IMG/VR virus record: IMGVR_UViG_2671181040_000012
Strand: one strand, 5' to 3'
Length of the DNA stretch: 13,210 nucleotides
DNA from: a virus
Taxonomy: Duplodnaviria; Heunggongvirae; Uroviricota; Caudoviricetes
This document shows, in pieces, positions 6,001-9,000 of the stretch. Each line of letters opens with the position of its first letter. The stretch's first letter is position 1. The position numbers are program-made.

Positions 6001-9000
6001 GCGGGTTATGCGGGTTATTTCTGTGGATAAGTCAGTATCCATTTGATTATTAAAGAAATGACAGAAAAATCGTAACCCGCAAAATACCCCAAATAACCCG
6101 CAAATGGGCCTAAATAACCCGCAAAAGCGCGATTATAACCCGCAAAATATCACTGTAATGGATGAAAAAAGGCCGGGTGTAACCCACACGGTTCTGTAGA
6201 TATACAAAAATTGAGGTGTTTTTATGTTTCTTGAAGCCATACCAAAAAGCATTTCTCCGGCTGTTCCTGGCTGGTGGGCAAGATTCCGGAATGACGATTG
6301 CGGCGAGTGGTGGAGTCCGGTTGCTGCATGGGCGATTTGCGATGTGTTTTATTCCGGTGATTCTGAGGTTTACTCTGAAATATTACCGGTACTCACTGGT
6401 GATATGGGAATGACACCACATCACAGCGCAGAGGGATATTGCGAATGCCTGTATTTGCCTGACACAAAATTCATTCTTTCAGATGAACCGGGAACGCTTG
6501 CATGGTATCCGGCTAACAGCACAGCGGAACAGGTGACAATCATCAACGTTAAAACCGGAGAGCAGACAGCATGACAGCACAGATAGCGGCTTACGGGCGG
6601 CTGGTGGCTGACCCGCAGTTAAAGACCACCAGCAAAGGGACACAAATGGCGATGGCGAGTATGGCGGTTCCCCTGCCGTGCAGCCAGGCGGATGACGGAA
6701 CGGCGACGATGTGGTTATCCGTCCTGGCGTTTGGCAGACAGGCCGACGCACTGGCAAAGCACCACAAAGGCGAACTGGTGAGCGTGGCGGGTAACATGCA
6801 GGTAAGCCAGTGGACAGGCCAGAACGGCGAAACGCGGCAGGGCTGGCAGGTTATCGCAGACAGTGTAATCAGTGCCAGAACGGCACGACCGGGCGGTAAA
6901 AAAGGCCAGCAGGGCCAGGCTACTGACGCACTGAACAGGGCAAAACAACAGGCGGGAAATGATGACCCGTACGGGGATAACATCCCGTTTTAATTCACAA
7001 CAGCGAACAGAGTAATTACAGGGGAAGGCATGACAAAGCTGACCATTAACCGAAAACCGAAAGGCATTTACGGCACGCAGCCAGAAACGACGCAGGCGGT
7101 GCAGCAGCAGGATAAAACCACATCGGCGCATAAAGTGATACCCGGCAATCAGAACACACAGCAGAGCCGCAAACAGAAGCCCACAGAGGCGACACCGTGG
7201 CGGCATATGACCAAACGCCAGCGCAAAAACCGCAGGCGCGTTAACCGCCTCACTGAGATGTGGCCTGACTTATTCAACAGGGAAGCGCCAAAGCCGCTGA
7301 AGGTGGGAATATTCGACGACCTGATGCAGGATATCGCCGCCAGGGGGCTGACATTCGGGCCGGGGGCATTACGTGCAACGCTGGCATCTTATGCGCAGTC
7401 TCCGCGCTATTACCGCGCCCTGATAGCTGGTGGTGCACGTTATGACCTGAAAGGCCAGCCATGTGGGGAAGTGACACCACAGGAACAGCAGGAGGCAGAA
7501 ACGCGGCTGATGGCACTGAATGAGAAGCGTAAACGCCGGACAGCAAAGGAGAAGACAGGCGCATGATTCACGACAGCAAAGCGGAAGAACTGGAGGCTAA
7601 AGGGCTGTACCGGAGAGCGGCGGCGCGGTGGGCTGAGGTTATGCAACTGGTGAACACCGATAAGGAGCGCGAACAGGCGGCAAAGCGTCGCGCGGAATGT
7701 ATCCATAAGGCAGCACGCCCACCCGTTATAGCGGATAACTTCGGGGCACTGAAAGAGGCTGTAAAACGTACTCATGCGGGAATGGGGATGGAAGACGCAG
7801 GTAAATCTGTCTGGCGGAACTATCCGAAGCAGCCGAACAACAACCAGTGATGCAGGATATTATCCTGAAAAATGACCATCACTCCCGTGGGCGGATAACA
7901 TAAAATTCTGCATATGCGCACACACAGACGAAGCCGGAACACTCCGGCTTTTTTTGCGGGTCCTCCCGGTGGGGTACCCTTGCCGCGGGGCGGCGGACGC
8001 GCGGAAAAAGGCTAGTTTTTGAAATTTCATTCGTCATCACCACAACTGTAATGAATTGATATTCAATATGTTTTATTTTTCTGGTGTCGATTTTGATTGT
8101 TTTTTGTTCATCGCTAACACCATTTATCTAAAGTTGTTCGCAAGATGCATGTTTAAAACATTCTGGAGCGGATATGGATCGAGAGTTAAAAAACCATCCC
8201 CTTCCCACCGTAAAAACTGCGCATCGATGTTAAGGATTGTTAAGGTGTTTTGCGCAACATTCGCGATAACCATGTTTAGAAATGCCAGGGTTATTTGCGT
8301 AAAAATGGCAGGCAGTGCAGGAGATTCACCAGGGGGAGAATTCGCAACCAGACATCAGGAATTTATGTCAGAGCTTAGCGGGATATGGTGTTATTGAAGG
8401 ATGGAAACAAAGCGACGACGGGAACGCCGCCGCTTGTTTTAATAATTTAACGAGACGCTAAATTACATATAGGTAACAGTCACTGGCAGGGAAGCTTTCC
8501 ACTGAATCTGGTCATCACTGGCCACAGCATTATTAAGAGTGATGGTAATGGCTTTGCCCTTTTCGATACCAGCGCCGTAAACACCAAAGAAGGTGGCGTT
8601 ACTGTCATCAAACTTTTCTACGCCAGTATCGCTCTGCATCTCACCTTGTTGTTTCCATTTCGTAACGAAATCAGAAGATAATGCGCTAATCAATCCCAGA
8701 GCCTCATTATTGCGCACAGCGGCAGCATTTTCCCCAAGACCGCCGTAGAATGCATCACTATTATCAGCGGCATATAATGCCTTGGAGCCTGTCTCTGAAC
8801 CGTCACTTGTTAACCAGGAAGATAAAGCAGCAGCAGAGAAGGGAGCGGTCATAGTGCCAATAGCGCTTCCTGATACATCCCGGACTGATAAAGTGACCGT
8901 AGTTACTCCGTTATTAAAACCGTTTATATCAACAGCATTGTTATAGCTAATTTGAGGTTTTATACCTTCACCTCCGGTAAAACCATTAACATCGGCATTA

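Follow-up and report, generated by a model that had tools for sequence, protein, structure and literature searches.

The gene at positions 7030 to 7566 (plus strand) of the window, a stretch of 13,210 nucleotides assigned to a virus of the Caudoviricetes, encodes a protein of 178 amino acids (WP_053887908.1) which, on its sequence and its modelled structure, is a confident member of the FinO/ProQ family, and which is carried as optional cargo, outside the satellite core, by what its gene content indicates is a cos-type PICI-like satellite in E. coli. Among the RNA chaperones of bacteria, FinO-domain proteins form the third major class, and the protein described here is an uncharacterised new member of this known family. 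By analogy with its characterised relatives we think it probable that it is a functional RNA-binding protein of FinO-type architecture, encoded in a cassette that would act in trans.

The FinO-like protein and its predicted fold

The identification of the gene draws on the reading frame, Pfam, RefSeq and the ratio of substitution rates. The frame is bounded exactly by positions 7030 and 7566 on the plus strand; an in-frame stop lies at 6991-6993, with no start codon earlier than the ATG, which is located 36 nt downstream of the ssb stop and is preceded, 1 nt to its 5' side, by the Shine-Dalgarno-like AGGGGAAGG (7020-7028, plus strand) read from the sequence. RefSeq names the product 'ProQ/FINO family protein'. 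The profile search that the first-pass annotation had proposed as a check bears out its assignment of a FinO domain to the C-terminal part of the protein, Pfam PF04352 (ProQ/FINO) matching residues 68-172 (7231-7545, plus strand) with 85.5 bits against a cutoff of 27 (E=3.1e-24) and with coverage of profile positions 5-108 of 109. Sequence matches in the PDB are headed by ProQ (1.2e-12), followed by FinO (1e-11), NMB1681 and RocC.

The AlphaFold2 model, with pLDDT values of 86-96 over residues 61-170, comprises helices at 62-77, 94-104, 111-122, 125-133 and 150-176 and strands at 136-138 and 144-147, that is, the helices alpha-1 to alpha-5 with a beta-hairpin which characterise the FinO fold. 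Foldseek likewise ranks FinO (1dvo) first at E=1.7e-6, then NMB1681, RocC and Lpp1663, the four together spanning E 2e-6 to 1e-4, and returned no match outside FinO-family structures below E=1.

Three residues of ProQ, namely R58, Y70 and R80, are essential for all seven ligands tested (PMC10578477), and these align to R115, Y127 and R137 of the FinO-like protein, of which Y127 and R137 do not vary among 36 homologues and R115 is conserved in 80-89%. Since these essential positions are retained, we can soundly infer from the sequence that the protein would bind RNA. The RNA-contact residues R121 and R165 of FinO likewise correspond, in a gapless alignment, to R115 and R159, while the residues of moderate effect in ProQ, K54 and R62, are unconserved, being replaced by P111 and A119. 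By homology, the concave pocket formed by R115, Y127 and R137 would clamp the base of an intrinsic-terminator hairpin together with its 3' U-tail, and this clamping would protect the bound RNA.

Membership of the family does not extend to its named subgroups. The NCBIfam FinO model NF010317 scores 69 bits, below its cutoff of 136, the ProQ equivalog NF003434 scores 57.3 bits against a cutoff of 127 and matches over positions 6-118 of 205 only, and the Pfam FinO_N domain (PF12602) found no match in the protein at E<=10, pO103 FinO serving as a control which matched at 1.4e-38. Because the NCBIfam scores fall so far below cutoff and FinO_N is unmatched, whatever is extrapolated here from FinO is extrapolated by analogy. 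PADLOC returned no matches that would point to a defence function for the FinO-like gene or its neighbours. RgdR, a regulator reported on all E. coli PICIs, was considered as a possible identity for the gene and rejected, as it is a protein of 99 aa with no stated relationship to FinO.

The N-terminal extension and the relation to known FinO-domain proteins

The domain had been described as preceded by a basic, low-complexity extension of 75 residues containing a disordered segment. The extension exists and is indeed basic, with a net charge of +7 over residues 1-58 and +8 over 59-75, but the remainder of this description needs revision. Its length is 67 residues by the Pfam boundary, and about 51-55 residues are predicted to be disordered (pLDDT<50 at residues 1-3, 7-9 and 11-51), which together give an extension of ~55-67 residues; pLDDT, composition and selection delimit a predicted disordered, basic, Gln/Thr/Lys-rich stretch at residues 1-51 (7030-7182, plus strand). 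As measured by a SEG-like entropy over 12 residues with a trigger at 2.2 bits, residues 1-58 average 2.90 bits, equal in effect to the 2.91 bits of the domain, and the only stretches below the trigger are residues 62-74 and, at the C-terminus, 165-176. The segment quoted as disordered, KRQRKNRRRVNR (residues 62-73), lies partly inside the Pfam envelope and within a modelled helix (62-77, pLDDT ~88), and the prediction makes it the beginning of helix alpha-1 rather than part of a disordered linker. This basic helix (KRQRKNRRRVNRLTEM), together with W57, would make up the N-terminal end of helix alpha-1 (7198-7260, plus strand) according to both the AlphaFold2 model and the alignment to FinO, in which it occupies a position resembling that of W36 and KVKKQK, so that in both proteins a Trp followed by a Lys/Arg run is found at the helix tip; the commonest allele (variant P0053) has R in place of W57.

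Purifying selection acts on the extension as strongly as on the domain, the median dN/dS being 0.25 for codons 1-58 and 0.26 for codons 59-162 (33 pairs, which are non-independent), and the motifs LTINRKP, QQDKTT and TPWRHMTKRQRKNRRR are retained across ~100 homologues. Pfam and PDB searches found no known domain in residues 1-70. The LTINRK motif at residues 4-9 (7039-7056, plus strand), which follows the pattern hydrophobic-(S/T)-hydrophobic-(K/N)-(R/K)-(K/R), is common to FinO, where it reads LTLKRK, and to other N-extended clusters of the family: of 61 representatives of N-extended clusters, 19 carry a motif of this type, where shuffled sequences would lead one to expect 0.21, and none of the 73 clusters with short extensions has one. 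This common motif argues for a shared ancestry or a common function of the N-extensions and, because it is present in FinO and in about one third of N-extended members, the architecture is of the FinO/FopA type, neither new nor peculiar to this protein. In a 2023 review the N-terminal extensions of the FinO family were viewed as acquired independently; the occurrence of the motif in about a third of N-extended clusters runs counter to that view.

Of the known systems, FinO of the F-like plasmids is the best structural match. Compared with pO103 FinO (186 aa), the satellite protein is 36% identical over 90 residues without gaps (E=1e-17), and the two have in common the disordered basic N-terminus opening with the motif, the RNA-contact arginines and a basic C-terminal helix. 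They differ in that helix alpha-1 of the satellite protein is ~27 residues shorter, K125 of FinO has no equivalent, and FinO_N and an NF010317 score above cutoff are lacking; moreover, the gene is satellite-borne and chromosomal (at 379 of 379 E. coli places), lies outside a tra operon and has no FinP-like RNA beside it in Rfam searches. Duplexing and strand exchange by FinO need both the disordered N-terminus and the W36 helix tip, a fragment of residues 45-186 being capable of binding only (PMC3105414). On this analogy we infer a chaperone activity for the FinO-like protein, in which the flexible basic N-terminal region would serve strand exchange and annealing, pairing the bound RNA with a partner. 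The predicted architecture would thus run from a short, conserved N-terminal motif through a linker that is disordered and basic into helix alpha-1, itself basic, and then the FinO fold, to close with a C-terminal helix which is likewise basic.

FopA (YafB, pCol1B9) is likewise a mobile-element protein with a C-terminal FinO domain and an N-terminal extension, which carries two basic stretches (PMC7491321) and opens with a comparable hydrophobic-then-basic sequence, PVIVVKKRR; its RNA ligand is the Inc antisense RNA, encoded on the same plasmid. The identity to FopA, however, is 35% within the domain only (E=2e-9) and the N-terminal regions do not align, such that the close relationship, N-terminal region included, which defines the FopA clade was not found. 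In E. coli ProQ (5nb9), which has the three pocket residues in common with the satellite protein, the domain is N-terminal, with a linker and then a Tudor-like domain on its C-terminal side, whereas in the satellite protein the domain is C-terminal, with nothing after it and no Tudor domain; K54, R62 and the NF003434 score separate the two further. On other satellites, a ProQ/FinO-like gene is listed, at the level of annotation only, among the accessory regulators of the E. cloacae AVS0889 PICI together with PerC (PMC13612085), and one is annotated in the Vibrio episomal capsid-forming satellites (PMC13230959), the likeness there being by description only.

The satellite and its FinO-PerC cassette

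The first-pass annotation had taken the carrier to be a phage satellite, and its anatomy agrees with this in every sequence feature by which PICIs are recognised, namely an integrase, AlpA, a primase-replicase with an adjacent iteron origin, a size of ~10-15 kb, att repeats and no capsid, tail or lysis genes (PMC6092414). The element spans 14,382 bp (~14.4 kb) between 26-nt direct att repeats, adjoins tRNA-Pro, and contains an integrase, AlpA, a DUF927 primase-helicase, an iteron origin and a Nu1-type TerS; genes for capsid, tail and lysis are absent from it. TerS of this type and cosN-like elements are indirect hints of induction and packaging by a helper phage. The exact lambda cosN has no counterpart in the window at <=2 mismatches; a cosN-like core with 3 mismatches was noticed by eye.

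The FinO-like gene lies ~850 bp from the iteron origin, in the replication operon, adjoining ssb (6571-6993, plus strand; Pfam SSB), which is the last conserved backbone gene before a variable slot. Its stop codon overlaps the ATG of a PerC-family gene (ATGA) at 7563-7850 (plus strand; Pfam PF06069, E=3.9e-36), and this is followed by a 3' UTR at 7851-7929 and then by the backbone operon terminator (to 7956, plus strand), with a stem at 7930-7951, a U-run to 7955 and a fold z-score of -3.98. Whereas the full 3' UTR is retained only in loci with the FinO-like gene, the same terminator hairpin is found 16-17 nt 3' of ssb in satellites without it. The FinO-like gene and perC, with ~80 nt, thus make up a regulatory cassette of two genes, which sits as an insertion between ssb and the operon's terminator. 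The genes between 2885 and 7850 lie on the same strand and overlap or are closely spaced and, given this spacing, the ATGA overlap and the strong terminator at 7930-7956, the FinO-like gene is probably co-transcribed with the ssb operon. Since the cassette precedes the operon terminator, its expression is expected with that of the replication operon, and the FinO-like protein would be made whenever the ssb/replication operon is transcribed.

Context statistics were drawn from E. coli RefSeq genomes and IMG/VR, a profile search of contigs having given three loci, too few. Among 80 satellites with SSB 97-100% identical, more than 25 different first ORFs occur 3' of ssb; the FinO-like gene is one of these in 4 of the 80, with the same PerC allele in every case, and PerC is present in 4/4 satellites with the FinO-like gene versus 1/76 without (Fisher 3e-6). 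In E. coli 042 perC directly follows ssb. By megablast the FinO-like gene occurs in 335 E. coli genomes as against 1497 for ssb, one of its alleles is found in 4005 blocks of an indexed assembly collection, and in ECCHD184, where the remainder of the island has been replaced, the FinO-like gene and perC alone persist next to yejO, both with their ORFs intact. A parallel between this gene pair and the FinO-ANR pair of plasmids was examined and rejected: PerC matches the ANR model weakly (E=8e-4, below cutoff), BLASTP of PerC against the ANR protein of pO103 gave no significant match, and the ANR protein has no Pfam PerC match.

Possible targets

The earlier suggestion was that the protein could target transcripts of the helper phage or of the island. 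We would extend this, in that the FinO-like protein would have to act in trans on RNAs outside the cassette, whether these come from the satellite backbone, a helper phage, the host or a co-resident plasmid; the status of an optional cassette fits cargo directed at the host or at another element at least as well as it fits island or helper targets. To our knowledge, each plasmid FinO-like protein characterised so far is served by an antisense RNA of its own, encoded on the same plasmid (FinP, Inc). No RNA gene travelling with the cassette, dedicated antisense RNA included, was found here. Rfam searches of the whole window at E<=1 and of 1900-3100 at E<=10 turned up neither FinP nor a C4/CI RNA, no Rfam family reaches its gathering score in the window, and the sub-threshold matches are at chance level (STnc470, E=0.57; isrD, E=0.09, on the T1 terminator).

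One possibility, which is credible without being the one we would choose, is that the cassette is directed at the host, PerC acting on transcription and the FinO-like protein on RNA so as to reprogram how the lysogen expresses its chromosomal or virulence genes rather than to serve the satellite life cycle. The gene opens a hypervariable accessory slot directly after ssb, is missing from most sister satellites and is both tightly linked and translationally coupled to a regulator of a family whose PICI-borne members modulate LEE expression (PMC11773190, PMC6092414); the survival of the pair alone in ECCHD184 and the want of an accompanying RNA gene point in the same direction. However, the cassette is situated in the replication operon, 5' of the backbone terminator, which would couple its expression to satellite induction and not to lysogeny, unless there is an internal promoter. 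The characterised N-extended proteins FinO and FopA, moreover, show high specificity for RNAs from the element that encodes them (PMC9977716).

The position by ssb and near the iteron origin would suit a different role, one that we regard as rather unlikely, in the control of satellite copy number or induction, whereby the protein would stabilise a satellite antisense or 3'-UTR RNA repressing AlpA, the Icd leader or the primase. FinO and FopA do regulate the transfer or replication of their own elements through antisense RNAs (PMC9977716, PMC7491321), and the island offers three structured, terminator-bearing RNA candidates: a minus-strand transcript of ~70 nt (TGnTATAAT at 2087-2079, terminator at 2033-2006), a two-hairpin 3' UTR on the minus strand (T1) at 2126-2256, which shows one compensatory change in its terminator, and a leader hairpin at 2825-2851, 100% conserved in locus L010. 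All three, however, either occur in satellites without the FinO-like gene or are missing from those with it. Thus the ~70-nt candidate is conserved in loci L007 and L004 and absent from the FinO-positive loci L009, L010 and L005, and the two-hairpin 3' UTR is present in 825 genomes, FinO-less satellites included. Among the 80 satellites with near-identical SSB no candidate island RNA tracks the FinO-like gene, which is itself dispensable for ~80-95% of related satellites with the same backbone, and no result of this analysis speaks for helper-phage or island transcripts as the target.

A bolder version of action in trans, to which we attach a low probability, lower than that of copy-number control, is that the FinO-PerC pair is a portable, single, promoterless regulatory plug-in which satellites would place ahead of their operon terminator, such that satellite induction would release a FinO-type chaperone capturing the terminator-bearing RNAs of another element; these could come from the helper phage or, as with FinP, from an F-like plasmid in the same cell. 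The more particular proposal that the protein is a surrogate for FinO, which binds FinP and represses the conjugation of a co-resident plasmid in a conflict between elements, is very unlikely. FinO is the best structural match and, among the mobile-element proteins compared, also the best pairwise one (E=1e-17 against 2e-9 for FopA), it shares with the satellite protein both the motif at the N-terminus and the helix tip of Trp plus basic residues, and it recognises RNA by shape rather than by sequence; yet the identity is only 36% within the domain, and the shorter helix alpha-1, the undetected FinO_N and the 69 bits against 136 with NF010317 all weigh against an equivalent function. A reading in which the gene would have lost its function and be in decay, or would owe its existence to an error of annotation, as truncated database homologues of 102-150 aa might suggest, has a negligible probability, being refuted by a dN/dS of ~0.25 in both halves, invariant pocket residues, intact ORFs in hundreds of genomes and a confidently predicted fold.

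The favoured reading thus remains that of a functional RNA-binding protein of FinO type acting in trans. The analysis confirms the annotation of the gene, while the extension now appears as FinO-like, conserved and partly helical, and the gene as the cargo of an optional cassette, the defined limits of which make a clean design for knock-out and complementation easy. So far as we are aware, every characterised mobile-element member of the FinO-domain proteins acts on its own element, whose replication or transfer it controls. The satellite-borne clade extends over genomes of E. coli, Shigella, Salmonella and Citrobacter, which number in the hundreds. Were the plug-in proposal true, it would represent the first RNA-chaperone-based layer of conflict between satellite and helper or satellite and plasmid. 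The ligand of the FinO-like protein would reveal whether satellites use RNA chaperones toward helper phages, hosts or plasmids.

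A FinO-family protein encoded behind ssb

The reading frame at 7030-7566 (+), for which the first-pass annotation had given the same coordinates, encodes a protein of 178 residues; the in-frame stop codon of ssb occupies 6991-6993, no alternative start lies between it and the ATG at 7030, and AGGGGAAGG is found immediately 5' of this ATG. The Pfam ProQ/FINO profile matches residues 68-172 (E=3.1e-24, 85.5 bits against a cutoff of 27), and a sequence search of the PDB returned ProQ (1.2e-12) and FinO (1.1e-11) together with NMB1681, Lpp1663 and RocC. An AlphaFold2 model based on an input alignment of 36 homologues attains pLDDT values of 86-96 from approximately residue 61 to 170, with secondary structures in the order of the FinO fold, and Foldseek against the PDB retrieved at E<1e-3 FinO-family structures only, headed by FinO itself (1dvo). 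The window sequence is identical to that of the E. coli MB06102 chromosome, where the RefSeq product is designated "ProQ/FINO family protein". A C-terminal FinO domain had been claimed at the outset, with the profile search named as a check capable of refuting it; since Pfam, the PDB, AlphaFold2/Foldseek and RefSeq all give the FinO family, the claim holds, and the first observation stands in its essentials. The family and the type of architecture are both known, as is the type of element that carries the gene as accessory cargo; the protein itself is a new and uncharacterised member.

For ProQ, residues R58, Y70 and R80 proved indispensable with every one of the seven RNAs assayed in vitro (PMC10578477), and these align to R115, Y127 and R137 of the FinO-like protein, the latter two being invariant across the family alignment. 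FinO contacts RNA through R121 and R165, which in a gapless pairwise alignment match R115 and R159. K54 and R62, which have moderate effects in ProQ, are not conserved. By homology, the FinO pocket would likely bind the terminator and the RNA 3' end, with annealing probably carried out by the basic N-terminal region.

Close homologues (55-93% identity), all annotated as ProQ/FinO family, occur in Escherichia, Shigella, Salmonella and Citrobacter, further carriers being E. ruysiae, E. albertii and Serratia oryzae (44% identity). Bona fide phage genomes contain distant relatives only (8 records, at most 41% identity), and plasmids carry FinO and other clades with about 35-45% identity within the domain, while the four matching PHROGs families are each labelled "unknown function". 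ProQ/FinO-like genes on satellites are mentioned, at the level of annotation and uncharacterised, in two 2026 papers (PMC13612085; PMC13230959).

The satellite and its optional cassette

The island, a PICI-like satellite, is situated between yejM/tRNA-Pro and yejO; direct repeats of 26 nt, separated by 14,382 bp, delimit it. Its gene order is integrase, a hypothetical gene and AlpA, then on the minus strand the phrog_21027 protein and YlcI/DUF3950, followed by an Icd-like gene, two small ORFs, DUF4222, a DUF927 primase-helicase and an iteron origin. After the origin come a small ORF and ssb, behind which lie the FinO-like gene and perC; the remainder consists of an orphan F4 fimbrial subunit gene, a Nu1-type small terminase, a pair of small ORFs and another perC. 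The origin (5997-6188) comprises four to five direct TAACCCGCAAA iterons with an exact spacing of 21 bp at 6072-6188 and two inverted copies at 5997-6014, which flank an AT-rich stretch just 3' of the primase-helicase gene. No capsid, tail or lysis genes are present among the annotated genes of the island, and the gene content matches the anatomy published for Gram-negative PICIs (PMC6092414). Because the small terminase (9820-10404) is of the lambda Nu1 type (Pfam E=1.3e-69) and neither a large terminase nor any structural gene is found on the island, the organisation suggests that the satellite diverts the packaging of a cos-type helper.

Several other features of the island deserve mention. 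A GC-rich element of 73 nt occurs twice in inverted orientation with 89% identity, at 7958-8030 (+) and 11518-11590 (-), its core CCGCGGGGCGGCGGACGCGCGG differing from lambda cosN GGGCGGCGACCT by 3 mismatches. In the related FinO-positive satellite L010 an exact lambda cosN is found at position 9669, between its own FinO-like gene and a Nu1-type terS. Two cos sites have been reported for EcCICFT073. The F4/K88 fimbrial subunit gene at 8463-9275 (-; Pfam E=5.7e-53) is an orphan, standing alone in the accessory region with neither usher nor chaperone genes close to it, and the approximately 1.4 kb at 10405-11856, devoid of a RefSeq gene, contains only unconvincing ORFs and the second cos-like copy.

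Of 5426 complete E. coli genomes, 335 gave a megablast match to the FinO-like gene, in every instance on the chromosome; for the neighbouring ssb the number is 1497. Among 80 IMG/VR satellites with an SSB 97-100% identical to that of the window the gene is present in only four, all of which share one PerC allele (Fisher 3e-6) and have a Nu1-type TerS (2e-5), the first ORF after ssb assuming more than 25 different forms across the 80. At other tRNA/att sites, too, this backbone is found with the FinO-like gene behind ssb and with different cargo. Downstream of the gene, perC overlaps it by ATGA and is followed by a strong intrinsic terminator at 7930-7956 (+; 9-bp stem, U7 run, z=-3.98), which the consensus terminator scan did not list; it was recognised on visual inspection, and folding confirmed it. 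Where loci lack the FinO-like gene, the 25-nt hairpin of this terminator (here 7930-7954) is found 16-17 nt after ssb, and the 80 nt at 7851-7929 are confined to cassette-bearing loci; therefore the FinO-like gene, perC and these ~80 nt constitute a cassette that was added as optional cargo between ssb and the terminator of the operon. No non-coding RNA gene travels with this cassette.

In the E. coli 042 locus (L016) perC starts 15 nt after ssb and the FinO-like gene is absent. This FinO-less relative (NC_017626.1 2236998-2259046) encodes capsid, protease, portal, connector, HNH, TerS and TerL and sits within a prophage large-terminase gene, as a helper-embedded, capsid-forming satellite. In strain ECCHD184 (L008, 8992-9809) the FinO-like gene and perC, both intact ORFs, are all that is left of the island beside yejO, and a methyltransferase/helicase/GIY-YIG block and transposases have taken the place of the remainder; at least four strains show this remnant. 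The island carries two PerC-family genes, at 7563-7850 (Pfam E=3.9e-36) and 12902-13210 (Pfam E=4.5e-23), the first of which matches the NCBIfam ANR model weakly and below cutoff (E=8e-4). On the pO103 plasmid the gene after finO belongs to the ANR family; no sequence link could be shown between this ANR protein and the satellite PerC.

Candidate partner RNAs

Four island RNAs have a hairpin with a U-tail, the shape favoured by FinO domains, and an Rfam search yielded nothing at gathering score, with no match to FinP or C4. The first candidate is the operon's own 3' end (7851-7956), and the second the conserved, structured 3' UTR of the phrog_21027/YlcI operon (2126-2256, -). The first hairpin of this UTR (2191-2231) is conserved and found in hundreds of E. 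coli genomes, a single compensatory change, G-C/C-G, is seen in its terminator T1 (2134-2153) among five sequences, and the UTR has a weak, sub-threshold Rfam match to isrD (E=0.09). The third is a possible small RNA of ~70 nt (2001-2087, -), convergent with alpA. Its extended -10 element, TGaTATAAT, occupies 2087-2079 and its 12-bp terminator 2033-2006. Loci L007 and L004 preserve the -10 box and the 50 nt at the 3' end but vary in the 5' part; L009 has lost the candidate by deletion, and L010 and L005 lack it. The fourth is a leader hairpin 5' of the Icd-like gene (2825-2851, +), for which satellite L010, although diverged elsewhere, has a 49-nt stretch of 100% identity. At 2754-2884 (+) a sigma-70-like promoter (TTGACG-18-TAACAT) precedes this gene with a leader of ~95 nt, a layout recalling the c4-icd immunity regions of P1/P4 but lacking an Rfam C4 match. 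Across the loci compared, none of the four candidates tracks the presence of the FinO-like gene. The first-pass annotation had proposed helper-phage or island transcripts as possible targets, a suggestion that these results neither back nor contradict.

The N-terminal extension and its shared motif

An extension that is present and basic, as the first-pass annotation had it, precedes the domain, with a net charge of +7 over residues 1-58 and +8 over residues 59-75; yet it was described as a low-complexity stretch of 75 residues, whereas by the Pfam boundary it has 67, and predicted disorder in the AlphaFold2 model is confined to residues 1-51. With a 12-residue entropy window and the usual trigger of 2.2 bits, only residues 62-74 and the C-terminal 165-176 fall below this value, the complexity of residues 1-58 equalling that of the domain. 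The segment KRQRKNRRRVNR, said to look disordered, is instead predicted to form a helix (62-77, pLDDT ~88) and aligns with the start of the FinO/ProQ profile and with FinO helix alpha-1. Rather than drifting, the extension is conserved: LTINRKP, QQDKTT and TPWRHMTKRQRKNRRR are kept across ~100 full-length homologues, and pairwise dN/dS (33 phylogenetically non-independent pairs from nine loci) comes to 0.25 in codons 1-58 and to 0.26 in codons 59-162.

In FinO the disordered N-terminus and the W36 helix tip confer strand exchange and duplexing, while the fragment 45-186 binds only (PMC3105414). The pO103 FinO starts with MAEQKRPVLTLKRKTEG and bears TPPKW36KVKKQK at the tip of its long helix, whereas the satellite protein starts with MTKLTINRKPKG and bears ATPW57RHMTKRQRK; its helix alpha-1 is ~27 residues shorter than that of FinO, and W57 is replaced by R in the commonest allele. 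The architecture is FinO-like, but the resemblance is limited to short motifs.

In a survey of 149 representatives of 50%-identity clusters from an exhaustive family search, 17 have the pattern [LIV][ST][ILV][KNR]R[KS] at positions 4-12 (shuffles give 0.04). When representatives were grouped by the length of the extension before the core domain, a slightly looser pattern was found within the first 25 residues in 19 of the 61 with extensions of 45-110 residues and in none of the 73 with shorter ones (shuffles give 0.21). The motif takes the form hydrophobic-(S/T)-hydrophobic-(K/N)-(R/K)-(K/R/S) at positions 4-25 (representatives P0121-P0269; FinO, L002:352-912; FopA of pCol1B9, L015:5713-6315), the opening PVIVVKKRR of FopA being related to it. 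Pfam FinO_N matches FinO itself (1.4e-38) and neither the FinO-like protein nor the other motif-bearing clusters, and so captures FinO alone. The motif itself is found in about one third of the FinO-family clusters with extensions of 45-110 residues.

The most useful by-products of the analysis are the definition of the cassette and this shared N-terminal motif. According to a 2023 review such extensions were acquired independently in each lineage (PMC9977716); for this class of proteins the shared motif suggests otherwise, common ancestry and convergence both fitting the data.
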